Shown here piece by piece: positions 652 to 16,937 of a DNA stretch of 25,839 nt (positions are counted from its first letter, which is position 1; each line of letters opens with the position of its first letter). Below the pieces are notes generated by a model. It did no database searches, was not told the origin of the DNA, and was given only the letters and a program-made list of their open reading frames with translations. Position numbers and translations under genes: made by a program. Source of the DNA: Candidatus Oleincola secundus (GTDB lineage: Bacteria; Atribacterota; Phoenicimicrobiia; Phoenicimicrobiales; Stramentimicrobiaceae); contig JAGYLS010000019.1 in assembly GCA_018400815.1 (NCBI GenBank), positions 1 through 25,839 on the forward strand. Direction: 5' to 3'.

Positions 652-698
652 TCAATATCATTCCTTTCGTTATGTCATTCTCCGGGAAATTTTAAGGC

Positions 699-1736
699 CT
701 ATACTTCTTCGTCATTGAGGAATTTAACCATACTAGCTTTGGCTGAATCCAACATTTTCAAACTTTTTACCATACGGAGATTGATTTTTAATTCTGAAGC
801 AATGGGTTTAATGAGCCTATATGTTTCTTCTTTTTTTACGAATATTTCCTGAGGCAGGGTCTTCATGTTCATAGCAATTTTATAAAATTGTTGTTGAAAT
901 TCTATAAAACATTGATCAGGTTTTGCTAAATGATGATCTAAAATAAAACCTGAATGATGATCTACCCAAAAAAATACATAGGGATAATATGGTCTCTCTC
1001 CTTTATCCTGGACTGCCCTTGGATAATAAAAGAAATCAGCTTCCCAGGTACCTTGATGAGGTAAATGTCTTTTATTTATCTGGTTTAGTAATTCCTTATC
1101 AATCGATTTTAGAATAATCTCGTTTTTTGCTAAAGGTAATGGTTCTATCCATAGGTCTTTCCAGGTAAAACCTGTCCCTTCTTTTTTTGGAACTCGAACT
1201 AAGTAATGATTGCTGGTACGTGGGGTGAGAAGATTTGGGTCTTGCTTAAAACGGATTGCCACTTCCATTGCCTGATCAAGGCATAAGGTCAAATAGTTAG
1301 CCTCTGCAGCAGTTAAAAACCACGGGTGATAACCAGGTTGATAACTTTGGAATAATGGCCATAGATGAGAATTATTTACTTTTAGACCAATTTTTTGAAT
1401 AACCTGAAAATCTTCTTTCTGTAAAAAAGATTTTTCTTCAAATGAAGCCATTAATAAGTTTTGATGACTGAGTATATCATCAAGGGACGGATAGTCTTTT
1501 TCCGATTGAAGCTCTAAGTAGCTATATAATCCCTCGCTTCCTAAATACACCGCCAGGGCAAAGTGTTCACCTGCTCCTCCCATGATAACACAATATCCTA
1601 TCTCTCCATTTTCGGGGTTCTGAACGCCAAATAAATCAGTATCCCACATCCAGTTCCAGCACTCCATTCTCTGAAACTTTATTGCAGTTTTGTATAATTC
1701 TTTCCATTGATTGATAGTAGGTAATTGTTTATTCAT
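699..1736 (-). CDS. Conserved hypothetical protein (DUF7309/DUF6930-like)
   Basis: 345-aa ORF with AAGGAAGGA RBS. Conserved-looking N-terminus WxxLY...WNWMWDTDLFGVQNPENGEIGYCVIMG; family recalled, not searched. Confidence 0.7.
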   Translation of the reverse strand: MNKQLPTINQWKELYKTAIKFQRMECWNWMWDTDLFGVQNPENGEIGYCVIMGGAGEHFALAVYLGSEGLYSYLELQSEKDYPSLDDILSHQNLLMASFEEKSFLQKEDFQVIQKIGLKVNNSHLWPLFQSYQPGYHPWFLTAAEANYLTLCLDQAMEVAIRFKQDPNLLTPRTSNHYLVRVPKKEGTGFTWKDLWIEPLPLAKNEIILKSIDKELLNQINKRHLPHQGTWEADFFYYPRAVQDKGERPYYPYVFFWVDHHSGFILDHHLAKPDQCFIEFQQQFYKIAMNMKTLPQEIFVKKEETYRLIKPIASELKINLRMVKSLKMLDSAKASMVKFLNDEEV

Positions 1737-1775
1737 CTTTCCTTCCTTTTTTATTTGGTTGTTAGTTTGCCGGTT

Positions 1776-2189
1776 TTAGTTTAAATAATTATTTAAAAAT
1801 TGAGATACACTTTGAATCTTGATGCCTCGGTAGGTTTTTAAAGGCAGTATATGATGTTTGTCGCCAGAAATAATATAATTTGCTTTTGCTTCAATAGCAC
1901 ATTCTAAGATACTGTTATCTGAGTGATGAGCCTTTATTATATCTATCTTTTCTGTGGGAACAACAAAGTGAGTGATTTTATTAACTGATTCATTTAAAAA
2001 AAATACTTGCTCATTGCTCCATCCAAATTTATGTTTAAAAATTCTGTTCAATTCATTTAATATTTTATCAGAAATAAAGATATCAATAGCCTTTTCCCTG
2101 GCCAAACTAATTAATGATTCAGGTTTTCCCCCAAATAGTATTGCAGAGATGTATACATTGGTATCCAATACTACTTTTATTTTAGACAT
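1776..2189 (-). CDS. PIN-domain (VapC-like, PIN_3/TIGR00305-type) toxin
   Basis: VVLDTNV, DNxILECA and IISGDKH motifs; lies 3 bp downstream of the RHH gene. Confidence 0.92.
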   Translation of the reverse strand: MSKIKVVLDTNVYISAILFGGKPESLISLAREKAIDIFISDKILNELNRIFKHKFGWSNEQVFFLNESVNKITHFVVPTEKIDIIKAHHSDNSILECAIEAKANYIISGDKHHILPLKTYRGIKIQSVSQFLNNYLN

Positions 2190-2192
2190 TGC

Positions 2193-2444
2193 TTAGCTTG
2201 TGCTATCACTTTCATATTCTTCCCTTATTTTTTCAATATCGTCCTCAGATTTGATATTGTATCTATTTGCAGTTATTTCGCCCCATTTTCTTATTTCTTT
2301 CCAGCGGTTTATTTCGTCAAGATATGATATAAGGGATTCCTTGAATATTTGGCTTCTGGAAGTTTTTCTTTCTTTTGCAAGATTATCAACTTCCTTATAT
2401 AAGTCTTCGTTTAAAGACATGTTGATAATTTTGGTCTTTCTCAT
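2193..2444 (-). CDS. Ribbon-helix-helix (CopG-like) antitoxin
   Basis: IINMSLNEDLYKEVDNLAKERKTSRSQIFKESL is an RHH pattern. ATG at 2444 follows a GGAG RBS. Confidence 0.88.
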   Translation of the reverse strand: MRKTKIINMSLNEDLYKEVDNLAKERKTSRSQIFKESLISYLDEINRWKEIRKWGEITANRYNIKSEDDIEKIREEYESDSTS

Positions 2445-2458
2445 ATTTATCACTCCAA

Positions 2459-2510
2459 TAGTAATGATATTTCTTTACTATAGAATATAATAAATTAATA
2501 TTCTTGTCAA
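2459..2510 (-). promoter_or_regulatory. Sigma70-type promoter of the RHH-PIN operon with candidate operator inverted repeats
   Basis: TTGACA (2510-2505), 17 bp, TATTCT (2487-2482). Inverted repeats AGAATAT/ATATTCT (2482-2504) and TAGTAA-N10-TTACTA (2459-2480). Confidence 0.7.
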
Positions 2511-2530
2511 TTACTTACTAGCATTTTACA

Positions 2531-2604
2531 AGTTTGCCGGTTAGAAATAATTTACCGGTTTACCAGTTACCCGGTTTACCAATTAAGAATCAAGAAAAAA
2601 CAAG
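2531..2604. repeat. Degenerate 8-mer (TTTACCGG-type) and 7-mer (AATCAAG) tandem repeats
   Basis: tttaccgg tttaccag ttacccgg tttaccaa at 2551-2582, then aagaatcaagaa. AGTTTGCCGGTT at 2531-2542 is also present at 1764-1775. Confidence 0.7.
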
Positions 2605-2631
2605 TAAAAATATAAGATGAAAAAAATATGT

Positions 2632-2671
2632 AAAAAACCAGAGAGAGGATATCGCTGAACAATATCCTCTC
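2632..2671 (-). terminator. Rho-independent terminator of the capsule operon
   Basis: Stem GAGAGGATAT (2643-2652) / ATATCCTCTC (2662-2671), followed by a U-rich tract on the minus strand. Confidence 0.7.
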
Positions 2672-2694
2672 GGATTTTGTTGTGAGAATAAAAG

Positions 2695-3423
2695 TCACTT
2701 ATAATATTTTTGGTAATTGTAGTAATCGTAATTATAATAGTAGCTGTCTCTTTTTAAATCGACTTTATTTAATACCACACCTAACATTCTGGCCTTTGAT
2801 TTTTCTAAAAGGGCTTTTGTTTGTTTGACTGCATCTCTGTGTACCCTCTTAACCTCAACGATCAATAAAACTCCGTCGAGCTGGTTAGCCAGTATTAAGC
2901 CATCGGCAAATCCGATAATGGGAGGAGAATCAAACAAGACAATATCAGCTCTTTTTTTTAGTTCCTGGATAACTTCCGCCATTTTGGGTGAACTGAGCAT
3001 TTCGTAAGGATTGGGAGGAACAGGCCCGGATGGAACATAAGAGAGATTAGGATGTCCGCTACTTTGGTTGATTACTTCAGTTATTTCTTTGTCCCCTACG
3101 AGCACATTTGTTAAGCCAATACGTGAATTATATTGAAAAATTTTATGTAATGACGGCCGTCTTAAATCACAATCACAGGTAATAACCTTCTCGCCATTTA
3201 TAGCCATGGTTAAAGCCAGGTTTGCCAATAGAATTGACTTGCCTTCAAGTGGTATCGATGAAGTGGATAAAATTGTCTGGATGGGATGATCTGTGGTTCC
3301 TGAAAACTTCAAATTAGTTCTTAAGGTCCGAAAAGCCTCAGAGACTATGGATTCAGGACTGCTTTTGACAATAAAGGCATTGGAATAATCTCTTGGTTTT
3401 TCTTTTTTCTTTAATTTAAACAT
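2695..3423 (-). CDS. CpsD/CapB-family tyrosine kinase (cytoplasmic BY-kinase)
   Basis: EAFRTLRTNL, Walker A PLEGKS, Walker A' DCDLRRP, Walker B FDSPP, C-terminal tyrosine cluster YYYNYDYYNYQKYY. Confidence 0.95.
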   Translation of the reverse strand: MFKLKKKEKPRDYSNAFIVKSSPESIVSEAFRTLRTNLKFSGTTDHPIQTILSTSSIPLEGKSILLANLALTMAINGEKVITCDCDLRRPSLHKIFQYNSRIGLTNVLVGDKEITEVINQSSGHPNLSYVPSGPVPPNPYEMLSSPKMAEVIQELKKRADIVLFDSPPIIGFADGLILANQLDGVLLIVEVKRVHRDAVKQTKALLEKSKARMLGVVLNKVDLKRDSYYYNYDYYNYQKYYK

Positions 3424-3486
3424 AATAACTTTCTCGCTATTTATTTTTATAATCTATTTATCTTATATTTTTTGTGTCAATAAAAA

Positions 3487-5127
3487 TTATATCTGGGTTT
3501 TCCTGCTATCTATTTTTTTACTTTTTGTTTTCTTGCGTTTACGTCTTTTGACGATATCCTCAAAAGTGACCAAAGGAATTACACCTAAAACCGGTAGCTC
3601 TAAATATTTTTCTACATCATCTTTGCTCTTAAAGGAATAATCAAAAAATTCCATAAAGAATACCAGCATAACACCCAACATGATACCCAGTACTCCCCCA
3701 ATAGCCAGATTTAATAATTTTCTGGGCTTGATAGGATTAGTTGGCACAAGGGCTTGATCAATAATCCTGATATTACCCATTTCCATAGCCTCACTAATCC
3801 GGGCTTCCTGGTAACTCTCTAATAATAGCAGATAGGTATTTTCTGCTACCCGCACTCCTCTTTCCAGGCGGGCTAGTTGTAATTCTTTCTCCGGTAATTG
3901 CTCTAATCTGGTTTCATAATTCTTGATTACTTCAACAGTGCTATTCAGTCTTGCCTCTAATGAAATAATATTACTTTCCAGGGAAACCCTTTCTGAAAGC
4001 AAGTTCTGATAGATAGGGTTCATTGTTGACACGCTGGAACTGATAATCTCAGCAACCTTCTGACTTAATTCATTTTCAATTTGCCGAATCTGGATTTCAA
4101 TTTCAGTTACCTGGGGACTGTTTTCTGAATATCTTTCTTTGAGCGATGGTAGCTGAATCTGCAAATCGACCAATCTATTCTGTAATTGCTGGACAACAGG
4201 ATTTGCAGAAATCGTTTGAGAGGAAACAATAGTTTTTGAATGTTCCTGTAATTGTTTTTTGATTTGTTCCAGACGTACCTGACTACCGGTAATTTGGGTA
4301 TCTAAATCAATTCTTTGTGCTTCATATTTGGCCAGTTGTTCCAGATTCAGTCTGGTTTCTTCATCTAAATAGAGGATGTTCTCTCTCTTTTTAAAGGATA
4401 ATTTTTCTTCTTCCAATTCCCTTAATTCTTTTTCCTGGGAAGCCAGCTGTTTTTCAATAAAACTTTTAGCTGCAGTAGCCTGGGTACGATTAAAAGATCT
4501 GGACTGTTCAACATAGACCTCGGCACTTTTGTTGGCAATATCAGCTGCTAATTCAGGATGAATATTTTCACTGCTTATTTCAATAATATTGGTATCTCTG
4601 ACGAGATTTGCTGATAAAGAATTTCGCACATTGCTTAATATTCTTCTTCTGATCGCCTGTTTATCAGCATCCAGGTTCTCTTCTTCAGCAATATTACTCA
4701 CAAAACCAGCAGCAAACTGTTTTAATCTTAAAAAGTCCAGTATATCGATAAACCAGCGTAATTCATTGACCCTACGCTGAAAATTATCCTTCTCTATGGT
4801 CTGAAACAGGTCCAGTGGAAATTGACTGACAACCTCTTCGGCAATTTTGCGACTCTTAATGATTTCGACTTGTGTTTCAATATTGTCACTTCGTCCCATT
4901 AAAAAGCCCATTTCATTATCACTAAGTAATTGGCCAGGGGAATTATTTTCAGAGATAAGCACCGTGGTTGTCGCTTTATAAACCGGTGCAATGATATAAT
5001 TAGCCAGAAAAGCCAGAAAGAGAGCACTGATAAAAACTAAAAAAATTATCCATTTTCTCTTCCTTATTATTTGAATATATTCCTGTAAGGAAATTTCTTC
5101 ATCTGATTGATTAAATTGTTCTGACAA
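3487..5127 (-). CDS. Polysaccharide co-polymerase / chain-length determinant (GumC/Wzc N-terminal type)
   Basis: EISLQEYIQIIRKRKWII plus TM, long coiled coil, IIDQALVPTNPIKPRK plus C-terminal TM, LPVLGVIP. TTG start after AGGAGG. Confidence 0.93.
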   Translation of the reverse strand: MSEQFNQSDEEISLQEYIQIIRKRKWIIFLVFISALFLAFLANYIIAPVYKATTTVLISENNSPGQLLSDNEMGFLMGRSDNIETQVEIIKSRKIAEEVVSQFPLDLFQTIEKDNFQRRVNELRWFIDILDFLRLKQFAAGFVSNIAEEENLDADKQAIRRRILSNVRNSLSANLVRDTNIIEISSENIHPELAADIANKSAEVYVEQSRSFNRTQATAAKSFIEKQLASQEKELRELEEEKLSFKKRENILYLDEETRLNLEQLAKYEAQRIDLDTQITGSQVRLEQIKKQLQEHSKTIVSSQTISANPVVQQLQNRLVDLQIQLPSLKERYSENSPQVTEIEIQIRQIENELSQKVAEIISSSVSTMNPIYQNLLSERVSLESNIISLEARLNSTVEVIKNYETRLEQLPEKELQLARLERGVRVAENTYLLLLESYQEARISEAMEMGNIRIIDQALVPTNPIKPRKLLNLAIGGVLGIMLGVMLVFFMEFFDYSFKSKDDVEKYLELPVLGVIPLVTFEDIVKRRKRKKTKSKKIDSRKTQI

Positions 5128-5147
5128 TTAAACCCTCCTGTAAATTT

Positions 5148-5330
5148 AATCAATAATCACCAATCTACAATCACTAATCTCCAGTCACTAAATACAAATC
5201 ACCAATTGCCGGTCACCAGTCTACAATCAAGAATAAAAAACAAGAATCAATAATCAAGAATTAATCACTAGTCAAAAACTAAAAAATCAAGAATCACTGA
5301 TCAATAATTAAGAATCAAAAATCAAGAATC
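5148..5330. repeat. Degenerate 7-mer tandem array (AATCAAG/AATCACC), about 25 units
   Basis: aatcaat aatcacc aatctac aatcact aatctcc agtcact ... aatcaaa aatcaag aatc; fills the whole spacer. Confidence 0.85.
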
Positions 5331-5713
5331 TATGACTTTAATTGGAAATCATTGTTTTTTAAATAATGAATAAATCCTGATAATTGCTTTAATATTTTTT
5401 TAGTAAAACTATATAGATTATTAAAATCCACCTTGTCAATATATTTTAAATCAAGAGCAATATACAAATCATTTTGTATTTCAGCAACCGATCCTCTTGC
5501 CATTGATAAAAAATTCGCATAATCTTTGTAAGTAGAACGTTCAAATCCTTCTGCGATATTAGCCATTACAGAAACTGCAGCTCTTCTTATTTGTTGAGAT
5601 AATCCATAATTTTCAATAGTTGGAAAATTTCTTGTTATTTTATAAATGTCAGCTGTTAATTTTCTTGCATCCTGCCAAACTAATAGTTCTTCAAATGATT
5701 TGATTTTCGCCAA
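5330..5713 (-). CDS. Four-helix-bundle protein (TIGR02436 / 23S rRNA IVP family, Avd-like fold)
   Basis: FEELLVWQ, FP..ENYGLSQQIRRAAVSVMANIAEG and ARGSVAE motifs; TTG start after AGGAG. Confidence 0.95.
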   Translation of the reverse strand: MAKIKSFEELLVWQDARKLTADIYKITRNFPTIENYGLSQQIRRAAVSVMANIAEGFERSTYKDYANFLSMARGSVAEIQNDLYIALDLKYIDKVDFNNLYSFTKKILKQLSGFIHYLKNNDFQLKS

Positions 5714-5785
5714 TTGTACTCCTGAACTCCGTAATTTAACTTTTTATTATGCTATATATTTTATAAAAATATAAAAATAATATTA

Positions 5786-5910
5786 TTCGCCAATACCAAT
5801 AAAAAATTACCGATCAAAGATAAATACTAATCGCCAGTCACCAGTCAAGAATCAATAAAAAAATCAAAAATCATAAAATCAAGAAACACTTATCAAGAAT
5901 CAAGAATTCG
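5786..5910. repeat. Degenerate 7-mer tandem array (AATCAAG/AGTCACC)
   Basis: aatcgcc agtcacc agtcaag aatcaat ... tatcaag aatcaag; same orientation as 5148-5330. Confidence 0.8.
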
Positions 5911-5965
5911 TATAAATTCAAAATTTTAAAATCTAAAAACAAAAACTATAAACAAAAAAGGTTTC

Positions 5966-6099
5966 AACTAATTAACTAATTAACCAACGCAACTAATGAA
6001 CTGCATCTTAAACCAATTAACTAATTAACCAATTAACTAATTAACTAATTAACCAATTAACCAACGCAACTAATGAACTAATTAACCAATGAACGATTC
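5966..6099. repeat. 8-mer tandem array AACYAATK, about 14 units in two blocks
   Basis: aactaatt, aaccaatt, aactaatg and aaccaatg units, with two aaccaacgc variants. Confidence 0.92.
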
Positions 6100-6182
6100 A
6101 CAAATCATTACTATATAAGATAGCATAGAAATTGTTTAAGTTTCAACTATTTCGAATAATTATTTTAAATCAATTTATATCA

Positions 6183-7493
6183 CTATTTCAGGACACCATA
6201 AATAGAGATACCGGTTTGGATGATATCCAATGTGGTATCAATATCCAGCTCGGATAATGGCCTGGCTGGTAAATAGACAATGTCCTGTGGTTGGAGAGTA
6301 ATGTTTTGCGCTAAATGCCCATTTTTTAAAATCTCTTTTAAATCCACTTCAATAACCTGGTCATATTCTTCGCGAATAACTTTCACTTCTTTTAGTTCTA
6401 TGGTGCGCATTTCTATTCCCTCTTCATCTTGGGGAAATTTCCTGATAACAAGACACGAACTTAGTCTGGCCTTTTCATTGTAGCCTCCAGCCAAAGAAAT
6501 TGCCTCTACCACAGAACAGGTTCCTTCAATATTATAGAGACCTGGAGTTCTAACTTCACCTAAAACATAAATATTATTTTCTAAAGTCATGGGTATAAAA
6601 AGTGAATCACCATAATTGAGGGCAATATTCTGGGTTAAATCCTGCTCTAAAAGTAAGTTTTCCATATTAACCTGAATTGTTTCGCCATCCTGGCGATTCA
6701 CAACGGCATTTTTTAAATCGGCTCTGGCAGTAAAGCCATTGGCAATAGAAATTGCTTTCAGTATATCAACTTTTCCTTCGAGAGAATACAATCCAGGAGA
6801 ATTAACCTCTCCAGCTACAGAGATGGTATTCATTTCAAAAGCTTTAGGAATAAACAGGGAATCACCGGAATATAGAATTAGATTTTGACTCATATCGCTT
6901 TCATGGAGTAATTTTTCTAAATCAACCGGAATCACTTCTCCACTGTCCCTTATGATTGTTGCATTCTTTAAACCTGCGTTTTCTAAAAGTCCTCCGGCGA
7001 AAGATATCGCTTTTAAAACATTTACTTTTCCTGAAACAGGAAATAATCCCGGTGATTTCACCTCTCCTAATACCGAGATATCGGTGGTGCTAAAATCAAC
7101 AATAGTAAGGCTTACCTGGTTACCCTCTAATGAGGGTAGTACCTTTTCCATTTCCTGGACAATTGCAATACGGACCTCTTCTAAGGTCTTCCCAACAGCA
7201 TATATTTGACCATCAATTGGCAATGACATCATCCCATCCGGTTGAATGGGTACCCTCCTGGTCAATTCCGGATATCCCCATAATTGGATTTCCAGTACAT
7301 CCCGGTAATTCAGGGTATAATCCTGCTTTTGAGTTGTTTCAGCCTCTCCGACAGATTGAGTGTTTGCCAAAACATGGCCTGTTACAAGAAATATCATTAA
7401 TAAGCTTAAAAGAATAATAATTGTGGATTGATAAATCTTATTTGACTTTGACTTAAAATATTTATTTTGCATTATTCTCTCTTCTCCTTTCAC
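6183..7493 (-). CDS. Polysaccharide export protein (Wza/OPX family) with three SLBB domains
   Basis: Signal peptide, Poly_export motif (IQPDGMMSLPIDGQIYAVGKT), three V.GEV..PG repeats. Alternative ATG start at 7472; no lipobox Cys. Confidence 0.92.
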   Translation of the reverse strand: MKGEERIMQNKYFKSKSNKIYQSTIIILLSLLMIFLVTGHVLANTQSVGEAETTQKQDYTLNYRDVLEIQLWGYPELTRRVPIQPDGMMSLPIDGQIYAVGKTLEEVRIAIVQEMEKVLPSLEGNQVSLTIVDFSTTDISVLGEVKSPGLFPVSGKVNVLKAISFAGGLLENAGLKNATIIRDSGEVIPVDLEKLLHESDMSQNLILYSGDSLFIPKAFEMNTISVAGEVNSPGLYSLEGKVDILKAISIANGFTARADLKNAVVNRQDGETIQVNMENLLLEQDLTQNIALNYGDSLFIPMTLENNIYVLGEVRTPGLYNIEGTCSVVEAISLAGGYNEKARLSSCLVIRKFPQDEEGIEMRTIELKEVKVIREEYDQVIEVDLKEILKNGHLAQNITLQPQDIVYLPARPLSELDIDTTLDIIQTGISIYGVLK

Positions 7494-7532
7494 AAAAGAA
7501 GCTTTTCTTTTTTTAAAACTTTTTATTCATTC

Positions 7533-9560
7533 TTAAAATTCATATTTGACTTCAGCGGTAATGCTTATTTGTCCCAGGTCTTCATTTAATTGATTATCCT
7601 GGTTAGAAATAAGTTTATAGGAACCGGATAAGGATAAGTTCCAGTCATCAGAAATATTATATTCTAAATTGGCGAGAAATTCATTTGATTTTTGCACTGT
7701 TCCTGATAGAAAAATATTTTCATTGGCTATATCCGAGTCAGAAGGCAAGGAAATACCGGCCTGCCCTTCTCCATGTCTCTCGTTGATGTAATTTAAATGC
7801 AACAGTGTATCTTCGTTGATCTCATGAGAAATTCCCACTACAATTTGGTCAGCATCCGGCCCTAGGGGGTGACCGATATATTCTCCTTGATATAAATAAT
7901 TTTGCCATTCTTTTCTGGGATGATAGACATAGTTATTGAGGCGAGTATATTCGATAATCAAATCTGTTTTTGCATTATCCATAATATCCGGGATATGGCT
8001 GCCTATGCTGAATCCAACTCTTCCGGGATAAGGATTGACCTGTTGATAAAAAATAAAGTCATCAAACATAACTTCACCATAAATCTTGGCTCCATTATTA
8101 AATTGATATTGCAGGTCTAATCCAATATTATAATTAATATTGTTTTCCTTATCGGAAAGATCAGGGAAATTGGAATAAATCTGCTGGGTTAAATAATTGG
8201 ACAAAGGAAATGGTATGGGATTAAAGTAGAGAATACCACAATTCCGAGCGGCAATAGAAGTTTCCGATAAACCAATACGCCAGGGAGTATCAGGAGAATA
8301 TTCAAAACGCTGGCCAAATAACAGGCGATTATCATCTAGTAAGGAAAATAATTTGCTAAAATGAAGGTTTCCCCAGTTGCCGATTAATTGATCCAGGTCA
8401 AAATTACCGGAATAAGAAATCATGTCCAGTGGCCTGGTTTGGTTTGATAGGATAAGTGAACCGGAATAGCCTGGCCCCCATTTCATTTCATCTCTGCCAA
8501 TTTGCCAGGTTATGGGAGGAATTTCTAATCCATCAAAGGATGCCAATACCGGAATGTTGTCAGAAACGGGTATTTGATAAGCATCGGTTATAAATTTTAG
8601 ATAAGCCTTGTTCAGGTTTAATTCAACTGGTGAAAACTGTATATTTCTTATATCAAAGACCTGGACATCAACAGAAAAATCAGCTAGAAAAGCAGCATTA
8701 TCCCAGATTTCTCCGCTTATTATGGTACCAAATTTCAGATCGTACAAACCTTGATTTAATTTAATGGCTGATGGGCTTATGTTTGGGATATTGTTTTGCC
8801 CCTTAAAACGCAGCTTCTGATTCAAGTATCCCGAAACAGAAATAGTATCTTTTATGCGGTTGAATACGGCTTTCCTTTTATTTAAATAAACAACACTGAC
8901 GCCATAAGAAGCCAGGTCATCTTTTAATTCAGTCACTATATAGTCTAAAGACTCCATCTCCTGTTCAGTCAATTCGACATCTTTCAGTTGACCATCCTGT
9001 AAGTTAAAAATCATCTGACTGACCATTTCGGCTAAAATTCTGCGGGGAATGGGAAACTCTAATTTTCCGGAATGAGAATGGGCAAGATATCCTTTCCGGA
9101 TAAAATCATTGAGGCATTCGGCCATTCTTTCACCCTGGTAATCGTGCAGTATTTCCTGATTTGTCTTTTCCTTCGAAATAATTCTGACACCTTGTCTGCT
9201 CAATTCTTCTTCAAACTCCATGACTAATTTCTCTAAATGAATCAGCTGGGCTTCATCTAAGTCTATTTTTCCCCTCTCAAGATTAATTAAAGCCTGGTTT
9301 ATTAATCTTGCTACTTCCAGACGTGTTAAAGGTCTGGTATTAAGTGCAACCGTAGCTTCTCCCTGCAACAGATTTAAATATTCCATTTTTGCTAATTCAG
9401 TATAAATCCAGCTATCCAGGGGAACATTGATGAATGAGCTTAAATTGGTAGAACCTGGAGCTGCAATGGCAATAAACTGAACAAAGCAGGAAAAACAGAA
9501 TAATATGGACAGAAAAAAGATGTTTCTGGCGACTCTCTTCTTTTGCTTTGCGTTTTTCAT
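7533..9560 (-). CDS. Capsule assembly Wzi-family outer-membrane protein with N-terminal SLH-like repeats
   Basis: GRDEMKWGPGYSGSLILS and IGHPLGPDAD Wzi motifs; C-terminal YEF; N-terminal VPLDSWIY...RPLTRLEVARLI. Confidence 0.85.
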   Translation of the reverse strand: MKNAKQKKRVARNIFFLSILFCFSCFVQFIAIAAPGSTNLSSFINVPLDSWIYTELAKMEYLNLLQGEATVALNTRPLTRLEVARLINQALINLERGKIDLDEAQLIHLEKLVMEFEEELSRQGVRIISKEKTNQEILHDYQGERMAECLNDFIRKGYLAHSHSGKLEFPIPRRILAEMVSQMIFNLQDGQLKDVELTEQEMESLDYIVTELKDDLASYGVSVVYLNKRKAVFNRIKDTISVSGYLNQKLRFKGQNNIPNISPSAIKLNQGLYDLKFGTIISGEIWDNAAFLADFSVDVQVFDIRNIQFSPVELNLNKAYLKFITDAYQIPVSDNIPVLASFDGLEIPPITWQIGRDEMKWGPGYSGSLILSNQTRPLDMISYSGNFDLDQLIGNWGNLHFSKLFSLLDDNRLLFGQRFEYSPDTPWRIGLSETSIAARNCGILYFNPIPFPLSNYLTQQIYSNFPDLSDKENNINYNIGLDLQYQFNNGAKIYGEVMFDDFIFYQQVNPYPGRVGFSIGSHIPDIMDNAKTDLIIEYTRLNNYVYHPRKEWQNYLYQGEYIGHPLGPDADQIVVGISHEINEDTLLHLNYINERHGEGQAGISLPSDSDIANENIFLSGTVQKSNEFLANLEYNISDDWNLSLSGSYKLISNQDNQLNEDLGQISITAEVKYEF

Positions 9561-9587
9561 AGACTAATAAACTCCATTAGAATAATT

Positions 9588-9615
9588 ATCGCACCCGCAT
9601 AGTGGGTGGCTTTAA
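9588..9615. repeat. Dispersed hairpin repeat, copy 1 (IS200/IS605-end-like)
   Basis: ATCGCACCCGCATAGTGGGTGGCTTTAA, 26/28 identical to 21749-21776. Confidence 0.65.
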
Positions 9616-9640
9616 GAAGCATTACCACAATTTCATTATC

Positions 9641-10423
9641 TTAATCATGACTTTCATCTTGATGGTTATCAAGAACAGATATCTTTTTATTTTCTTTTAC
9701 AATACGATTCGAATTCAATATCTTTTCAGGATTTGTGGTAACCAGATCAAGAGCTTTTTCCTGGCCAATGATATGGGATATTTTATGCACACCTTCAGAT
9801 AATATCGGCTTCCGACCGAATTTAGATACCGAATGGGCATCTGTAACCAGGTAGTCAATTAAATTATTTTTTAAAGCCCGCTGGGCAAATAATTGAATTC
9901 CTTTTCCAAAAATACCATTGAGGCTGGCTGAAGTCAATTGACTTTCAATACCTCGGGTATGCCATTTTTCCAATAATTCAAGATTCTGTAAAAAGCCAAA
10001 ACAACGTTCAATATGGGCTATAACAGGGATATAGCCATTTAATTGAAGTTGAAATAAATATTGTTCAATATATGACGACAAGTGGATATCATTAGGAAAT
10101 TCCAAAAGGAGATAAGGAGAGTTATTTAATGTTAATAACTCACCATTTTGTAAATCATTAATCAGTTCTGGATAAAAGTGTATCTCCATTCCCGGCAACA
10201 CCTTTACCGGTATTCTCTCTTCCTTTAATCGTTTATTCAATTGGTTCACAGCAAGTATTATTATTTGAGCATTATTCTGATATACGCCCAGTTTATAATG
10301 AGGAGTTGCAATAATTGCCTTGATTCCATCATTCGAGGCTATCCTGGCAATATCAAGAGCTTCTTCCCAAGTAGCTGGTCCATCATCTAATTTTGGTAAA
10401 ATATGGCAATGTGAATCAATCAA
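9641..10423 (-). CDS. CpsB/CapC-family PHP tyrosine phosphatase
   Basis: IDSHCHILP..DDG, ATPH, AHIER and TDAH metal-binding motifs. Confidence 0.95.
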   Translation of the reverse strand: MIDSHCHILPKLDDGPATWEEALDIARIASNDGIKAIIATPHYKLGVYQNNAQIIILAVNQLNKRLKEERIPVKVLPGMEIHFYPELINDLQNGELLTLNNSPYLLLEFPNDIHLSSYIEQYLFQLQLNGYIPVIAHIERCFGFLQNLELLEKWHTRGIESQLTSASLNGIFGKGIQLFAQRALKNNLIDYLVTDAHSVSKFGRKPILSEGVHKISHIIGQEKALDLVTTNPEKILNSNRIVKENKKISVLDNHQDESHD

Positions 10424-10641
10424 CCTTTTCTCCTGAAATGTAATATTATTATTTTGTATCTTTTAGTATAGCAGTAGTCAGCAGTAATAGAAATATTACC
10501 TTTCTTCGTAAATCTGATTTATATTGAGCTTCTTTTAAAAATAACGACTAAAATAAAAATGATTATTTTAAACGTCAATTTTCAAATAGCTATAAGCATC
10601 AGTCGTTTTTTATTATTTCTCTATATATTATATATAAAGTT

Positions 10642-10671
10642 ATTATATAGGTTCACTAGTATAAAAATCAA
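10642..10671 (-). promoter_or_regulatory. Candidate promoter of the capsule export operon
   Basis: TTGATT, 18 bp, TATAAT on the minus strand. A second extended -10 (TGCTATACT) lies at 10465-10473. AT-rich context lowers specificity. Confidence 0.4.
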
Positions 10672-10703
10672 GTAGTGATTGGAATGGAGGGTAATTTAAA
10701 ATA

Positions 10704-10855
10704 GTGACCAATCACCAATCAAGAAAAAAACAAATAAATAAGAATCAATAATTTCCAATCACCAGTCAAGATAGTAACCAGTATCGTACAAGTATCGAGT
10801 CCAAAATACAAAAAAAGAAGTCGGCCAGTCGAATTATTATCGAGTAGAAATATAA
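10704..10855. repeat. Mosaic of 7-mer repeats (AATCACC/AATCAAG and AGTATCG types)
   Basis: TCACCAGTCAAGA at 10759-10771 is identical to 5838-5850. AGTATCG units at 10780-10797. TATCGAGTAGAAATATAA at 10838-10855 is repeated at 12480-12497. Confidence 0.75.
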
Positions 10856-10906
10856 AAAAGATTCGAGGTGCTAGGTGCGAATAAAAAAACAAGAAAACTG
10901 AAAACT

Positions 10907-10988
10907 CCCCTCTCCCCTCGGAGGGAGAGGGTTAGGTATTTTTTAAGTGGATGAAAATTGCTTCGTCGCTGCGCTCACCGAAATGAAA
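10907..10988. repeat. Adjacent REP-like elements: type A (CCCTCTCCC/GGGAGAGGG hairpin) and degenerate type B (TTGCTTCGTCGCT...AATGA)
   Basis: 9-bp perfect stem at 10908-10931. Type B is similar to 13546-13582 and 14633-14667. Confidence 0.75.
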
Positions 10989-11122
10989 TAATAGTATATA
11001 GTATTCTGTCATAGCATATACCGTAAAATAAAAAAGTTGCCGGTTTTCGGTAAAATATTTGAAGCAATGATAAATATTAAATTTAAGAACAAAAAAAGAA
11101 AAATCATTAAAGTTTTTTAATA

Positions 11123-11776
11123 CTATAAATCATTTTTATTTTCTAATTGTTGGTTGAAATATCCAGAGGATAAAGTTATGAGGTCTTTTTTTATTTCACT
11201 CCAGGAATAATGATATTTTACTCCCTCTGGAGTTTCTTCTTCTTCAGCATCCTTAAAATAAGTTAACGCCTTTAAAGTCACAGATTCTGAAAAAGATGAG
11301 CCATATTTATTTTTGCAAAAAGAAAATATATCATTAAGAGAATATTCTGTTTCTTTTATAATTGTCCATAGATCAATAAAGTCTTTCTTCAGGCCTCTTT
11401 GCACTATTGATATCAGCTTCATGGCAGAAATATCTTCTATAGAGGAAATTTGTATACCATTTTCAGATAAGAATGGTTTTAATAATGGATAATTATAATA
11501 GAAAAATGAAGTTTGTATAGTTTTTAATAATACAATTAGGGTATCTTCTTTCATTTCCACTAAGGACAACTGTTCTTCTTGAAAATAATTATTTAATTCA
11601 TTTGTTATTTTTATAGGTGAAAATTCTGATTCAGAAAAGAAATCAAAGTCAATAGATTTTCTATGACCTAATATCAGTGCAAGTCCTGTGCCACCGGCAA
11701 GGTAAAAAGACTTATTTGATAGGAGTAATTTCTTTAATATTTCCAATAACTCTTGCTGTTCTTTGGAAAGTATCAT
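11123..11776 (-). CDS. AbiEii/AbiGii-family nucleotidyltransferase toxin
   Basis: FYLAGGTGLAL..GHRKSIDFDFF, AMKL and RG..KDFIDL motifs. Probable start ATG 11776 (ORF track extends to 11821). Confidence 0.92.
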   Translation of the reverse strand: MILSKEQQELLEILKKLLLSNKSFYLAGGTGLALILGHRKSIDFDFFSESEFSPIKITNELNNYFQEEQLSLVEMKEDTLIVLLKTIQTSFFYYNYPLLKPFLSENGIQISSIEDISAMKLISIVQRGLKKDFIDLWTIIKETEYSLNDIFSFCKNKYGSSFSESVTLKALTYFKDAEEEETPEGVKYHYSWSEIKKDLITLSSGYFNQQLENKNDL

Positions 11777-12017
11777 CAAATCCACAATAAATCCTCCACC
11801 AGTTAAATGTTCTATTATCAAGTTTATAACTATAATGCCTTAAAATATTTTCAATTCCTTTTTTATCGATTTTTTTTATAAGCCATGACCACTCATATAT
11901 GTTTCCATATTTTAATATCCGCGATATCAACTCAGGGGAATTTAAGAATTTTTCTTCAGAGATATTTTTTTCGCCATATTCCCAGCTAAATTTTCTTAAA
12001 TTTATATTTTTATTCAT
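11712..12017 (-). CDS. DUF6922-like putative antitoxin partner of AbiEii
   Basis: FSWEY...ISRILKYGNIYEWSWL pattern; overlaps the toxin start. Start is 12017 or 12062. Confidence 0.75.
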   Translation of the reverse strand: MNKNINLRKFSWEYGEKNISEEKFLNSPELISRILKYGNIYEWSWLIKKIDKKGIENILRHYSYKLDNRTFNWWRIYCGFDDTFQRTARVIGNIKEITPIK

Positions 12018-12087
12018 AAACCAGAATGTCCCTGTACCGTTCTCGTCTTTAGCTTCATTCATAATAGAAAGTTGAATAGCTAATTTG

Positions 12088-12116
12088 ATTATAGTTAATG
12101 CAATTTAATTAGTCAA
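12088..12116 (-). promoter_or_regulatory. Sigma70-type promoter of the AbiE-like pair
   Basis: TTGACT, 17 bp, TATAAT. Confidence 0.65.
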
Positions 12117-12144
12117 AAAATGTTGCAAGATGATAATCGGTAGC

Positions 12145-12468
12145 TTCACCCCCACCTTAGTCCTCCCCCCTCAAGGGGGAGGAGATGAGAAGAGGCAGTC
12201 CTTCCCTCAAGGGGGAGGATATGACAGGAATAAATCCATTCTTCAAGAGGGAGGAAATGAGAAGGGATAATTATTCCCTCAAGGGGGAGGAAGTAAAAGG
12301 ATAGTTAATCCATCCGCAAGGGGGAGGAAATTAGTGAGCTAAATCTTCCCACAAGGGGTTGGAAATAATAAAATGTAATCCTTACCTCAAGTGGGGAAAT
12401 GAAAAAAGATAATCCTTTGCATGATAGGGAGGAAATGAGATTAGTCTATCCTTCTCTAAAGGGAGAAA
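12145..12468. repeat. Tandem array of nine ~36-bp hairpin units (REP-like type A)
   Basis: Core TCCYYCCCTCAAGGGGGAGGA; loop positions 12171, 12207, 12243, 12279, 12316, 12351, 12387, about 12421 and 12457. Confidence 0.9.
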
Positions 12469-12638
12469 CAAAAGAAGAGTATCGAGTAGAAATATAATTG
12501 ATTTAACCAACACATAGGTAACACTTTGATTCAGTAAATAGGTTACAATGTTTACACTTACTATTATTCAGCTACAGTATAAAATGATTGAAATATTAAA
12601 TAAATTCATGATATGGGAAGCCATTATATTATTGACTT

Positions 12639-12992
12639 TTAGCTTTGCTGATCTTTGAAAACCTCTAAAATATGTTCCTTGAAAGATTGTAAATTATTTT
12701 GCAATGTATCCCAAACAGCTTCAACATCGATTCCAAAGTAATCATGAATTAATACATTTCTAAAGCCTGTTGCTTCTTTCCATTCAACTTTTGGGTATTT
12801 TTCTTTAACATCTTCAGGTATATTTTTTGTTGCTTCACCTATTACCTCAAAATTTCTAATAACAGCATCTATTACCATTTCATTTTTTGAAAATTTATGA
12901 AAATCCATATTCTGAGTATAGTTTTCTATTTTTTCAATAGCATTTATGATATCTTCTAAATATAACAGGTAATCTCTTGAACGATTACACAT
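12639..12992 (-). CDS. HEPN (DUF86/HepT-like) ribonuclease toxin
   Basis: DAVIRNFEVIGEA and Rx4H motif RNVLIHDY; ATG at 12992 overlaps the MNT stop. Confidence 0.95.
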   Translation of the reverse strand: MCNRSRDYLLYLEDIINAIEKIENYTQNMDFHKFSKNEMVIDAVIRNFEVIGEATKNIPEDVKEKYPKVEWKEATGFRNVLIHDYFGIDVEAVWDTLQNNLQSFKEHILEVFKDQQS

Positions 12993-13284
12993 ATTGGACC
13001 TCATTAAAGATTTTTTCTTTTAATCTTGGTTTTACTGCATCTTTTATTACCAAATCAACTTCTTTTCCTAATAGATCTTCAAGGTAATTCTTCAACCTCA
13101 TATAATTAAAAAAATCTTTATGACCTTTATTAAAACTAACCAATATATCTATATCACTATCTTCATGAATAAAATGCCCACCCTTGGCAAAAGATCCAAA
13201 AACTCCTATTTCTTTTACTTGATATTTTTTCTTTATGTGGTTAACATTAGCATTTAATTTTTTCTTTATTTCAATAATATCCAT
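12985..13284 (-). CDS. Minimal nucleotidyltransferase (MntA-like) antitoxin
   Basis: FGSFAKG...DSDIDIL and LGKEVDLV motifs. Confidence 0.93.
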   Translation of the reverse strand: MDIIEIKKKLNANVNHIKKKYQVKEIGVFGSFAKGGHFIHEDSDIDILVSFNKGHKDFFNYMRLKNYLEDLLGKEVDLVIKDAVKPRLKEKIFNEVQYV

Positions 13285-13446
13285 ATCTAAATACCTTATT
13301 AATATTTTATTTAGGATTGATATTCATTTTCGTTGAATTTTGACTATATTGTATATATAGAATTGTATATTTTTTTCACTTTTTTCACAAGCATTATTAT
13401 AATTAAAGACAAAAAAATTACAATTGACCTATTTAACAATTAAAAC

Positions 13447-13510
13447 AGTATTCTGTATCAAGTATCGGGTATCAAGTCGAAAGACAATCGCTAGTCAACA
13501 ATCAATAATT
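13447..13510. repeat. 7-mer repeat mosaic (AGTATCR then AATCNNN)
   Basis: agtattc tgtatca agtatcg ggtatca agtcgaa ... aatcgct agtcaac aatcaat. Confidence 0.7.
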
Positions 13511-13545
13511 TAAAGATAAAACAAATTCTGTGGGAATAATTGAAT

Positions 13546-13582
13546 GAGATTGCTTCGCTCCCTTCGGTCGGTCGCAATGACA
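13546..13582. repeat. REP-like type B element just downstream of ugd
   Basis: GAGATTGCTTCG-N-TCGCAATGACA, with the same ends as 14633-14667. Confidence 0.8.
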
Positions 13583-13604
13583 AAAGAAAAAAGGTCGCAT
13601 ATTC

Positions 13605-15197
13605 TTAGCCTCTGCCAATACCATAATACTTAAAATCAAGTTTTTTTATTTTTTCAGGATTATACAGATTTTTCATATCAAAGATGAAAGGTTGGAAATA
13701 TAAGCCATATTCATGTCTTTTCATCAATAGTTTTATTTTATTAAAATCAAGATTACGGAACTGATCCCATTCAGTGAGGATGACTAAGGCATCGGCATCT
13801 TTTGCTGTTTCATATTCATCCTGACAATAGGTTAGTTCTGGCATTATTTTTTTGGTTTTCTCCATTGCCCTCGGGTCAAAACATTGAATCATGGCACCTT
13901 TTTCTAAAAGCATTTGAATTATATCAAGAGCAGCAGATTCACGGATATCATCTGTATTTTGTTTAAAGGCTAGACCTAAAATGCCAATTTTTTTATTGTT
14001 AAGATTTCTCATTTCTTTTTCAATTTTGTCTACTACTATTTTTCTTTGTCGCATATTAACCTCTATTACTGCGTTTAATAATTTAAAATCATACTTTGCA
14101 TTACTGGCAATGACATGTAAAGCCCTGGTATCTTTTGGAAAACAGGACCCTCCATAACCCGGTCCCGGATGCAGGAATTTAGGGCTTATGCGTCCATCCA
14201 TACCCATGGCTTTGGCAATCTGGTGCACATCTGCGCCTACCCTGTCACAAAGGTTGGCAATTTCATTGATAAAGGTAATCTTGGTTGCCAGAAATGCATT
14301 GCAGGCATATTTAATCATTTCTGCTGTCTCTAAAGTTGTAAATACAAAGGGTGTATCAAGAAGATATAAAGGACGATAAATTTCCTGTATGATTTGTTTG
14401 GCTTTTTCTGATTCATAACCAATAACTATTTTATTGGGATGGGTAAAGTCATATACAGCTGAACCTTCACGGAGGAATTCGGGATTGGAAATGATGTCGA
14501 AAGGATGGTTCACCCTCACCCTGCCCTCTCCCCTCAAGGGAGAGGGATTATTTGAAGAATCTCTTCTCAAGTTAGAGGGGGTATTTGAAAAATCTCCCCT
14601 CAAGGGAGAAGATGATGATGAAGAGGAAAACTGAGATTGCTTCGTCGCTTCGCTCCTCGCAATGACAGGAGGATGGTAATCCTCGCAATGACCAGAAAAA
14701 GAAGGGTCCTCGCAATGACCATGAGCAGAATGCTTCTCGGAATGACCGGGAGACGAAGTCTCCACATGATGACGGGGAGGAATTTGATTTTCGGTGATAA
14801 TTTGTTTGATTTTTCGGGCGGTACCTACCGGGACGGTGCATTTGTTTACAATAACCTTGTATTCATTCATATAACTGGCAATTTCTCTGGCAACCTCTTC
14901 TACCTGTTTCATACAGGCAGACCCATCATGATTAGATGGCGTACCTACGGCAATATAAATTACCTGGGATTCTTCAACTGCTTTTTTCAGTTCTGTCGTG
15001 AAACTAAGTCGTTTTTCTTCAACATTTTTTTTTATAAGTTCTTCCAGATTTGGTTCATGGATAGGGACACTGCCATTGTTTAGTAATTGGATTTTTTCTT
15101 TATCATTATCCACACAGGTAACTGATAATCCAAAATTTGCCAGGCAAGTACCGGTTACAAGGCCAACGTAGCCCGTACCGATTATTAATATGTTCAT
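13605..15197 (-). CDS. ugd: UDP-glucose 6-dehydrogenase with a ~91-aa in-frame repeat-derived insertion
   Basis: GTGYVG, SNPEFLREG, KYACNAFLATKI, catalytic GGSCFPKD, AFKQNTDDIRES. ATG 15197 follows GAGAGG. Confidence 0.95.
   Translation of the reverse strand: MNILIIGTGYVGLVTGTCLANFGLSVTCVDNDKEKIQLLNNGSVPIHEPNLEELIKKNVEEKRLSFTTELKKAVEESQVIYIAVGTPSNHDGSACMKQVEEVAREIASYMNEYKVIVNKCTVPVGTARKIKQIITENQIPPRHHVETSSPGHSEKHSAHGHCEDPSFSGHCEDYHPPVIARSEATKQSQFSSSSSSSPLRGDFSNTPSNLRRDSSNNPSPLRGEGRVRVNHPFDIISNPEFLREGSAVYDFTHPNKIVIGYESEKAKQIIQEIYRPLYLLDTPFVFTTLETAEMIKYACNAFLATKITFINEIANLCDRVGADVHQIAKAMGMDGRISPKFLHPGPGYGGSCFPKDTRALHVIASNAKYDFKLLNAVIEVNMRQRKIVVDKIEKEMRNLNNKKIGILGLAFKQNTDDIRESAALDIIQMLLEKGAMIQCFDPRAMEKTKKIMPELTYCQDEYETAKDADALVILTEWDQFRNLDFNKIKLLMKRHEYGLYFQPFIFDMKNLYNPEKIKKLDFKYYGIGRG
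14508..14780. repeat. Intragenic composite repeat: three 33-bp type A units plus five 26-27-bp type B units
   Basis: TCTCCCCTCAAGGGAGA units at 33-bp spacing; TCCTCGCAATGAC at 14654, 14680 and 14707, degenerate copies at 14734 and 14761. Confidence 0.9.
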
Positions 15198-15220
15198 CGT
15201 AATACCTCTCAAATGCAATT

Positions 15221-15316
15221 AATTGGTTCATTGGTTCATTAGTTCATTAGTTCATTGGTTCATTGGTTCATTGGTTCATTGGTTCATTAGTTCATTGGTT
15301 CATTGGTTCATTGGTT
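15221..15316. repeat. Perfectly phased 8-mer array (CATTRGTT) x12
   Basis: 96 bp, 12 units (the first is AATTGGTT); reverse complement of the 5966-6099 units. Confidence 0.97.
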
Positions 15317-15329
15317 TAAATGCAAGGCA

Positions 15330-15358
15330 AATATAATTAAAAGAAAGTTAATAAGCAA
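15330..15358 (-). promoter_or_regulatory. Candidate ugd promoter
   Basis: TTGCTT, 17 bp, TATATT immediately upstream of the 8-mer array. Confidence 0.45.
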
Positions 15359-15404
15359 TTGCTATATAAATTTTAAATATATAACAATAATAATAATTTT
15401 TATC

Positions 15405-15710
15405 CTATTTATCCATCTTTTCAATTTCTTCTTCTACTTCTTCTTCGCCTTCTTTATAAAATTTTTCTTCATCAGGGGCGAGCTCTTTAAGCAGTCTTAA
15501 AAATTCTCCGGCATGCACACGCTCTTCATCAGCAATATCCTTTAATACTTCCTGGGCTAATTTGTTATCAGTTGATTCGGCTAATTGCATATAAAGTTGA
15601 ATTGCCTCATATTCAGCGGAAATCATAAACCTTATTGCCCTTATTAATTCTTCCTCTGTTAATTTCCGATCATTTTTTAAACCAGCAAATGAATGTCCAA
15701 AATCAGGCAT
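15405..15710 (-). CDS. Short ferritin-like / rubrerythrin-type protein (encapsulated-ferritin-like)
   Basis: AEYEAIQLY...DIADEERVHAGEF di-iron ligand pattern; 101 aa. Confidence 0.88.
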   Translation of the reverse strand: MPDFGHSFAGLKNDRKLTEEELIRAIRFMISAEYEAIQLYMQLAESTDNKLAQEVLKDIADEERVHAGEFLRLLKELAPDEEKFYKEGEEEVEEEIEKMDK

Positions 15711-15901
15711 AATTTCATTCCTCTCTTTCTATTTTTAGTAAATATTTTTATTTTAATCCCATATCTTTAACTAATCAGTTGAAAAAATATTCTAATCATC
15801 CAAGAAACAAGTTTAAAAAACTTTGTAAGGCAAACTTAAAAAATTATACAATAATTATCATTTTTAGACAATCTTAACACAAAAGAACCTTTATTTTTAT
15901 A

Positions 15902-16430
15902 TTAACTAAACCAGAGAGCTATTTCTTTTTTTGCTTCCTGTTTATTGCCAGATGCATGAACTAAATTTTGTATAGACCTCTTTTGTTTGTCGGCAAAATC
16001 CGGTGAATCCAGAGAATAATCCCCTCTTATTGTTCCCAGTTCAGCAAAAACAGGAACCGTATTTCCGACTAACTTTCTCACCACTTCGACAGCATGATTG
16101 CCGCTTATGACAATTGCAACTACCGGACCGGAGACAACATATTGAATAAGCCATTTTCTTATTTTTTCCAATCTCCAGGGCATCATCAGTTCCTAAATCA
16201 TCTATTAGATTTAAATTGTATTTCTGATAGGTTTTTATGGTCTTTTCACCAACTAATTCTAACCATTCTTCATCATCCGGATAATGCCTTTCAACAATCT
16301 CTTTGGTCGGTTTTATTAGTTTCATTTTTTCCAACTTCAGACCTACTCTTTCAAACCTGGCAATAATTTCCCCCGTTAAGCGCCTTTTAAATGCATCCGG
16401 CTTTATTAAAACTAATGTTTTTTCTATCAT
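15902..16430 (-). pseudogene. ndk: Nucleoside diphosphate kinase split by a frameshift
   Basis: The N-terminal frame has EKTLVLIKPDA; the second frame has SGPVVA, GTIRGD and NLVHAS (catalytic His). The frames switch at an A6 run (16162-16167). Confidence 0.88.
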
Positions 16431-16692: not shown

Positions 16693-16731
16693 ATTAACAG
16701 TCCTTTGAAATTATTATTTACCTTTGAACCA

Positions 16732-16897
16732 TTAAGGTAGAGGAGCAGTACAAAATAAGTACAGACAATATAATTTTAATCTTTGTTCTGGAAAGGTTTG
16801 TCTGCCGAAGCAGAAAAATATTTCGTTTCTGCTGGGCTTATAGCAAAAAGCTATAAGACTGTCATCTTACTTAAAAGTATGATGGAGCGCTACTTAA
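16732..16897 (+). ncRNA. Lysine riboswitch (L-box) aptamer
   Basis: Ordered hallmarks GTAGAGGAGC, AGTA, GAAAGG, GCCGAA, TGGG, ACTGTCA, TGGAGCGCTAC. P1 TTAAGGTAG/CTACTTAA; P3 to P5 hairpins visible. Confidence 0.93.
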
Positions 16898-16937
16898 GGA
16901 ATAAAGTGCTTTATCATACTATATATTAGACAAAGAT

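Follow-up and report, generated by a model that had tools for sequence, protein, structure and literature searches.

The capsule locus of Candidatus Oleincola secundus (Atribacterota) lies on a contig of 25,839 nucleotides, here called the window, which is the entire contig C101 of a 2.0-Mb, 86% complete genome (G000). Its genes are interleaved with toxin-antitoxin (TA) modules that sit in junctions containing mosaics of short repeats. The repeats keep a fixed polarity with respect to the neighbouring genes, the gene content of orthologous junctions varies among relatives, and two of the modules are bracketed by exact direct repeats found nowhere else in the assembly. The explanation towards which we lean is that these junctions are seeded by repeat arms and small palindromes, and that TA modules are gained, duplicated and lost there, probably by host recombination between blocks of the same sense, and may be retained by addiction. 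An earlier sequence-only reading had proposed instead nested layers of small-gene cassettes, exchanged through repeat-type-specific sites in an integron-like traffic without attC.

Every gene from 699 to 15218 is on the minus strand, in the order DUF7309, PIN/RHH, Wzc-type kinase (wzc), chain-length determinant (wzz), a four-helix-bundle gene of the 23S ribosomal RNA (rRNA) IVP family, wza, wzi, cpsB, AbiEii with a partner, HepT/MNT and ugd, and Pfam and TIGR profile matches upheld all of the gene identities named for the modules. An exact 12-bp direct repeat flanks the PIN/RHH module (PIN toxin, 1776-2189; RHH antitoxin, 2193-2453; TIGR00305, PF13470 and PF01402). Its first copy (1764-1775; plus strand, as for all arrays and direct repeats below) abuts the PIN stop codon, and its second (2531-2542) opens a segment extending to 2600 in which the repeat scan also found a TTTACCAG-type 8-mer array and one AATCAAG unit. 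The GCCGGTT-type repeat that had been noticed on both sides of this module is thus sharpened to a defined 12-bp sequence with only two copies in the assembly. Similarly, an exact 18-bp direct repeat with only two occurrences flanks the AbiE block, which consists of an AbiEii-like nucleotidyltransferase (11123-11821) and an upstream partner of 116 amino acids (11712-12062) with a weak match, below cut-off, to DUF6922. One copy (10838-10855) lies in a mosaic at 10707-11050 that also holds AATCACC/AATCAAG and AGTATCG arrays and two palindromes resembling repetitive extragenic palindromes (REP-like; ~10900-11030), and the other (12480-12497) lies in a segment at 12145-12600, together with a REP-like array of 36-bp period (12168-12417) and a dispersed element beginning at ~12495. 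Among mosaics from other contigs, flank matches as good as those in the window were found in 0/39 cases for PIN and 3/39 for AbiE.

The remaining two modules are less sharply delimited. The four-helix-bundle gene (5330-5713; TIGR02436/PF05635) stands between AATCACC/AATCAAG heptamer arrays (5147-5336) and a stack of arms after the wza stop codon (5829-6094) made up of AATCAAG/AGTCACC units (5829-5907), an AAAAACT-type run (5915-5959) and a AACTAATT 8-mer array (5966-6094), so that the AATCAAG repeats described around this gene are indeed present, equally oriented, on both of its sides (direct score 78; p=0.01 in 100 shuffles). The MNT/HEPN module comprises a HepT-like toxin (12639-13004) and an MNT antitoxin (12985-13284). 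Mosaics from other contigs matched the spacer as well as its partner flank does in 10/39 cases for the four-helix-bundle gene and 37/39 for MNT/HEPN, where the longest exact flank match is 9 bp; by this sequence comparison, flank sharing at these two modules is not special. The AGTATCG repeats assigned to both sides of AbiE and of MNT/HEPN occur where they had been placed (10780, 10791, 12478 and 13461), but the one between the two modules is a single heptamer, though inside the 18-bp exact repeat, and the MNT/HEPN flanks match only at chance level. AATCNNN arrays do lie outside both modules (10710-10770 and 13486-13506), the second within a segment after the ugd stop codon (13447-13592) that also carries an AGTATCG array and a REP-like palindrome.

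The nesting of repeat-bracketed units that had been suggested for the capsule locus is seen in a second TA array of the same genome, on contig C124, in which three successive, overlapping units each have their own direct repeat of 132-135 bp (84-96% identity) with exact stretches of 52 and 73 bp. This array is a better test bed than the capsule locus. The region (G000:C124:1-9600, partly covered by L237, one of the extracted loci, which are labelled L) holds about ten TA modules and, by eye, a CysQ-like gene, separated by mosaics and with nested private direct repeats. At the modules of the window, no signature of a composite transposon or insertion sequence was found, the longest exact inverted matches between module flanks being at most 12 bp.

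The repeats are not a property of the capsule locus. Eight families of 7/8-mers are enriched outside long open reading frames (ORFs), most of them strongly and the AATCAAG type by a factor of about two: compared with local shuffles, repeat dimers number 83 against 5.8 for the AGTATCG type, 26 against 1.0 for the CCAGTTTA type and, more weakly, 23 against 10.2 for the AATCAAG type. Using hand-written patterns for these eight families, which miss single units and some other families, we detected 45 mosaics on 20 contigs of G000 (contig C62 being left out of mosaic and TA counts as a duplicate), 17 of them within 700 bp of a match to a TA or four-helix-bundle family and 28 with none. The mosaics are therefore not capsule-specific, and one set surrounds the native xerD gene. 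TA modules are nonetheless associated with them, as had been supposed: TA matches, located with nine Pfam families, lie beside mosaics in 20/40 cases against 47/1397 other long ORFs, or 5/10 against 23/528 when counted by gap, although the matches cluster on few contigs and the enrichment p-values overstate their independence. Mosaics are thus less common at ordinary junctions than beside TA modules, yet cargo is not needed for them. The clearest case is the xerD-punA junction, which is syntenic in 20/20 loci and is a repeat-free ~40-60 bp in 12 of these, and which has expanded to mosaics of ~410 and ~480 bp in G000 and its congener G001 with no added gene (relatives are labelled G throughout). 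In G000 (C134:2789-4800; L182), xerD, with several frameshifts, lies between two 339-bp mosaic copies; most relatives show the gene as a single long match. Contig G000:C189, which resembles a plasmid or prophage and bears ParA-like genes as well as TA genes, has palindromic 8-mer arrays of its own, of ACGTCTAA type.

Within the window itself, the contrast drawn earlier between tightly spaced core genes and accessory spacers filled with repeats stands in part. The modules and repeats are where they were said to be, but the PIN 3' spacer is only 39 bp and has a single repeat copy and no mosaic. Neither are the core junctions all clean, for there is a hairpin in the 80-bp wzi-cpsB gap, ugd has an in-frame insert, and no accessory gene adjoins the array at 15222-15316. 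The hairpin (36 bp, 9583-9618, on neither strand in particular) is one end of a ~250-bp dispersed element and has 82 matches on 45 contigs.

The arms obey a polarity rule. In G000, one sense occurs just after stop codons (28/29) and the opposite sense just before start codons (17/18), the sense of the AATCAAG family being assigned by co-orientation within G000 rather than from relatives; across 26 loci of G001 the corresponding counts are 18/19 and 11/12. The two senses are those of the arms of a four-helix-bundle cassette. Among 28 Atribacterota loci with this gene (the set that remained after six with short flanks and a few duplicates or short alignments had been removed), significant inverted flanks were present at 21/28 and direct flanks at 0/28, and across phyla (76 loci kept of 80, four having been dropped) 66 had inverted flanks, 9 direct flanks and 1 direct flanks only. 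In a typical relative a long stem folds around the four-helix-bundle gene (z = -4.4). The copy in the window, whose direct arms had been taken as the pattern, is the exception: no complementary arms were found on its two sides (inverted p=0.91), and the arrays at 5147-5336 have the before-start sense on the messenger RNA strand, ending just upstream of the start of the chain-length gene.

The polarity rule accounts for the same-direction layout of repeats in the window, because wherever before-start arms stand ahead of and behind a block in a co-directional operon, that block will seem to be flanked by direct repeats. In G020 even the core gene ugd lies between 8-mer arrays of the same sense. 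In the window, a ATTGGTTC 8-mer array (15222-15316) ends just upstream of the ugd start codon; since G015 and G020 keep a four-helix-bundle gene directly upstream of ugd, followed by the arm type of this array, the array is likely the orphan downstream arm of a lost four-helix cassette. The arrays at 5966-6094 and 15222-15316 form an inverted pair and could be seen as bounding a 9-kb block that inverts or moves. We rejected this as the principal interpretation, because both arrays conform to the polarity rule where they stand and the ugd-side array persists in relatives in which other genes lie upstream.

From these observations a sequence of events can be proposed in which the spacers are stretches of a genome-wide mosaic of 7/8-base arms and small palindromes, likely left by four-helix-bundle cassettes. 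Loss of the four-helix-bundle gene would leave its arms behind, and these would stack up. A module landing in a co-directional operon would then automatically be flanked by same-sense arms, and the same-sense blocks could serve as substrates for RecA-type or slippage recombination regardless of repeat type. TA pairs would be over-represented among the cargo if cells that delete them are poisoned, an effect that is well established for TA cassettes in general. A stronger version, in which the arms of the four-helix cassettes are true recombination substrates and a dedicated factor, such as the four-helix protein or a host Xer recombinase, helps units of gene plus mosaic to form circles and to reintegrate at the arms, seems unlikely to us; if it holds, the junctions would be integrase-free cassette arrays that stockpile TA and defence genes across Atribacterota.

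Comparison with relatives bears out the expectation that the modules are not fixed, since all four of them vary. The junction after wzc holds PIN/RHH, a four-helix-bundle gene, nothing or ugd, depending on the genome: in G010, DUF7309, wzc, wzz and wza keep their order but PIN/RHH and the four-helix-bundle gene are both missing, and in G001 a different PIN-like fragment precedes DUF7309 and ugd follows wzc. A metagenome search for close strains yielded a single locus. On metagenome contig L017, wzz is 95% identical and a four-helix-bundle gene follows wzc, in the position of PIN/RHH in the window. The wza-wzz junction holds the four-helix-bundle gene in G000, G050 and, in broken form, G036, and is empty in G010 and G049. 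Two AbiE copies stand in tandem in G007, next to wzi, with a mosaic between them. PIN/RHH DNA was found in none of 51 other genomes of the order, and the four distant protein homologues, from 85 other genomes, have no arms. A copy of MNT/HEPN, 84% identical, lies in a pilin-gene region of G001, and its homology to the window extends over 12501-13446, from mosaic edge to mosaic edge; one side of this copy is without arms, and the arms on the opposite side are of different types.

Different whole-gene cassettes thus occur between the same conserved genes, which is how minimal mobile elements behave, and whole junctions might have been swapped by homologous recombination in the conserved flanking genes, with repeats and TA modules co-accumulating passively. 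We regard this as a possible, though less probable, explanation. The capsule genes are themselves mosaic (on L017 the kinase that follows the 95%-identical chain-length gene is only 70% identical), many homologous modules are free of repeats, and mosaics expand at fixed junctions with no cargo, as between xerD and punA, all of which speak for such swapping. What it leaves unexplained are the genome-unique direct repeats that hug PIN/RHH and AbiE, the three overlapping repeat-bracketed units of C124, and the MNT/HEPN unit at an unrelated locus with homology running to the mosaic edges.

Several breakpoints fall at or within ~10 bp of repeats. In addition to the edges of the G001 MNT/HEPN homology (12501-13446), the alignment of a PIN-homologue contig from read run X4 starts within the 12-bp repeat, at 1767, after 614 unaligned letters, and the homology of orthologues upstream of DUF7309 stops at 1753-1757, 7-10 bp short of the repeat. 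A contig of the best-holding run, X1, joins 10786 to 13461 at a depth of 8.9, omitting both AbiE and MNT/HEPN between AGTATCG arrays, and both sides of this joint are unique in the assembly within three mismatches; the joint is suggestive of module loss between the arrays and is not proof of it. Contig C62, which is 98.9% identical to part of the C124 array, appears to lack one unit. No clean empty allele was read in the available sequence. Joints from runs X3-X5 at 85% likeness were set aside, as most of them link repeats belonging to other organisms.

The fragmented nature of the metagenome assembly raises the possibility that the tandem repeat-module-repeat layout arose from alternative strain alleles strung together at repeats. 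An apparent ndk frameshift in the same contig is contradicted by all four read runs, which show two extra bases at 16161 (probably an assembly error), and the X1 unitigs have depths of 9-24 over AbiE, HepT and the four-helix-bundle gene as against 30-37 over core genes. We did not use depth as a sign of partial presence because the modules are also the AT-richest parts and ranking by depth is advised against. Such an artefact is highly improbable, given that an independent 5248-letter unitig covers PIN/RHH, both 12-bp repeats and the start of the array next to the four-helix-bundle gene with 1 difference, that C62 repeats the C124 layout at 98.9%, and that relatives have the same kind of layout.

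A number of observations weigh against gain and loss of modules by recombination between same-sense blocks. The joint at 10786-13461 comes from one contig with 30 letters on its short side, at 93% likeness and with the intervening sequence unread; three other low-depth joints cannot all share one allele with it, so that some of the joints come from other loci or organisms; and the C62 variant with a missing unit is anchored by only ~20 letters. Exact repeats of at least 12 bp that are present only twice occur at 3/26 TA modules, compared with 4/311 control blocks, and two of the three modules are the window's own, chosen post hoc. Half of the TA matches (20/40) have no mosaic within 700 bp. 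Native xerD also lies between direct repeats, of 339 bp, 90% identical and mosaic-bearing, so that such repeats alone do not prove mobility. The cassette origin of the arms is a correlation, and the gene at 5330-5713 is the only PF05635 match, and thus the only four-helix-bundle gene, in the assembly. A 12-bp repeat is, moreover, short for RecA.

The part of the sequence-only reading that did not survive is the idea that each repeat type is a site for its own class of cargo. When homologues of the modules were examined, the same detected type was present on both sides within 450 bp in 0/4 cases for PIN/RHH, 0/4 for AbiE and 0/4 for MNT/HEPN, several homologues being armless; the sample is small, at four homologues per module, and the test also misses the window's own single-copy matches. 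Types are shared by 9/11 adjacent mosaic pairs (including those around core genes) and by 531/928 pairs on different contigs (p=0.086), and unrelated pairs often share a type because mosaics are stacks. A tie between cargo family and repeat type is thus not supported by the sequence comparisons, homologues having other types or none and type sharing being near background.

These counts make a dedicated integron-like system, driven either by a host Xer recombinase or by the four-helix protein together with a partner, quite unlikely in our estimation. There are features in its favour: the private direct repeats resemble attachment-site duplications, same-type direct arms bracket MazEF and HicAB modules in G001, and the modules carry promoter-like sites inside their repeats. 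By consensus matches only, each TA module has such a site between its gene start and the upstream repeat, including one at 2510-2482 for PIN/RHH, inside the 12-bp direct repeats, and one at 12116-12088 upstream of the AbiE block. The variable arrays of small self-contained genes are also what an integron would present. The enzymes are harder to find. In agreement with the absence of integrases and transposases noted earlier, no family of either kind was matched in a Pfam scan of 18 ORFs of the window (142-16430; no search for transposases was made in the rest of the genome), no integron integrase (TIGR02249) scored above cut-off in any of 22 family genomes, G000 included at its 86% completeness, and the attC-like pattern RYYYAAC...GTTRRRY was absent from eight spacers, this being a simple pattern and not an attC covariance model. 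As for tyrosine recombinases elsewhere in G000, one Xer-type gene is intact and lies among housekeeping genes, xerD is frameshifted, and two more are found on other contigs.

Chromosomal integrons likewise bring small genes together in arrays that differ from strain to strain and abound in TA pairs, each with a promoter of its own. The window differs in having no IntI above cut-off, no attC-like pattern and mosaics of 200-700 bp that also occupy core junctions, and it is not an integron. The closest likeness is to repeat arrays in Neisseria. NIME/dRS3 arrays (PMC3898611) combine several short repeat types over at least 200 bp beside surface-structure genes and have been proposed to promote gene exchange and to mark sites of integration and deletion, and minimal mobile elements place different whole-gene cassettes at one junction between conserved genes. 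The junctions of the window resemble both in behaviour, which is a likeness and not membership: the neisserial arrays are based on a 20-bp element, dRS3, targeted by a phage integrase (Nf1), whereas the window has polar 7/8-mer arms and palindromes with mostly TA cargo, and no recombinase acting on its mosaics was identified.

The individual components of the mosaics also have counterparts. Intergenic TAACTGA heptamers of Beggiatoaceae, cyanobacteria and Bacteroidetes are described in PMC4679880 as tandem, in fixed orientation just upstream of start codons and mixed with related 7-mers, by a mechanism stated there to be not known. The arms of the window are likewise tandem and oriented before starts, but stack at least eight unit families and are tied to four-helix-bundle genes and TA cargo; the words 'helix bundle', 'intervening' and 'toxin' do not appear in that paper. 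In the 23S rRNA intervening sequences described in PMC4990558, an S23p four-helix ORF lies inside complementary arms, with heptamers upstream of it. The same arrangement is seen in Atribacterota relatives, between the genes of operons, whereas the window copy lies outside rRNA, has direct arms and is missing the enclosing stem. Finally, CGTC-tagged REP palindromes, as presented in PMC3733652, occur downstream of and inside genes and without a dedicated transposase. The in-frame insert of ugd is similar, the palindromes being matched by resemblance only, and the REP-like palindromes of the window are one mosaic component rather than a boundary of modules.

The locus is best placed as a variant within the plasticity already known for repeat arrays, and a new cassette system has not been demonstrated; what it adds is TA cargo between direct repeats. 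We found no paper describing TA modules in mosaics of four-helix arms, in a literature search in which subscription journals were largely missing and supplements were not covered. The locus links the 7/8-base intergenic repeats of bacteria, the four-helix-bundle family and integrase-free TA clusters in one lineage. If only host recombination is at work, it would be a lineage-specific version of that plasticity, and if a dedicated factor takes part, a way of mobilising defence genes that is new. From the private repeats of 12 and 18 bp, the sequences of empty sites and of circles can be predicted exactly, in a form suited to polymerase chain reaction.

The core capsule genes that separate the modules, assigned from profile matches and all on the minus strand, are the Wzc-type kinase (2695-3423), the chain-length determinant (3487-5127), wza (6183-7493), wzi (7533-9560), the cpsB-type phosphatase (9641-10423) and the UDP-glucose dehydrogenase gene ugd (13605-15218). 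The REP-like palindrome insert of ugd (~14500-14770) lies in one loop of the enzyme; the segment has 113 amino acids here and 23-129 in relatives, with different combinations of palindromes and the frame kept. The dispersed element near 12495-12590, ~55-90 bp long, contains a dimer with 25-bp spacing and was present in 5/5 genomes searched, usually right after heptamer arms. It is reminiscent of the ends of IS481-family elements, but it behaves as a further block of the mosaic, and no adjacent transposase was recognised in 11 loci, judged from ORF starts alone. The segment at 21742-21924 is, like the hairpin at 9583-9618, an end or copy of the ~250-bp dispersed element found on dozens of contigs. 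In G001 (C314; L227:1887-2503), a bAvd-like gene lies between two 113-bp repeats of 87% identity, in the layout of a fragment of a diversity-generating retroelement. An Rfam scan of the window returned only a lysine riboswitch (RF00168, 101.9 bits) at 16730-16900, upstream of an ORF (17059-18306) whose product, by eye only, resembles a saccharopine-dehydrogenase-type protein.

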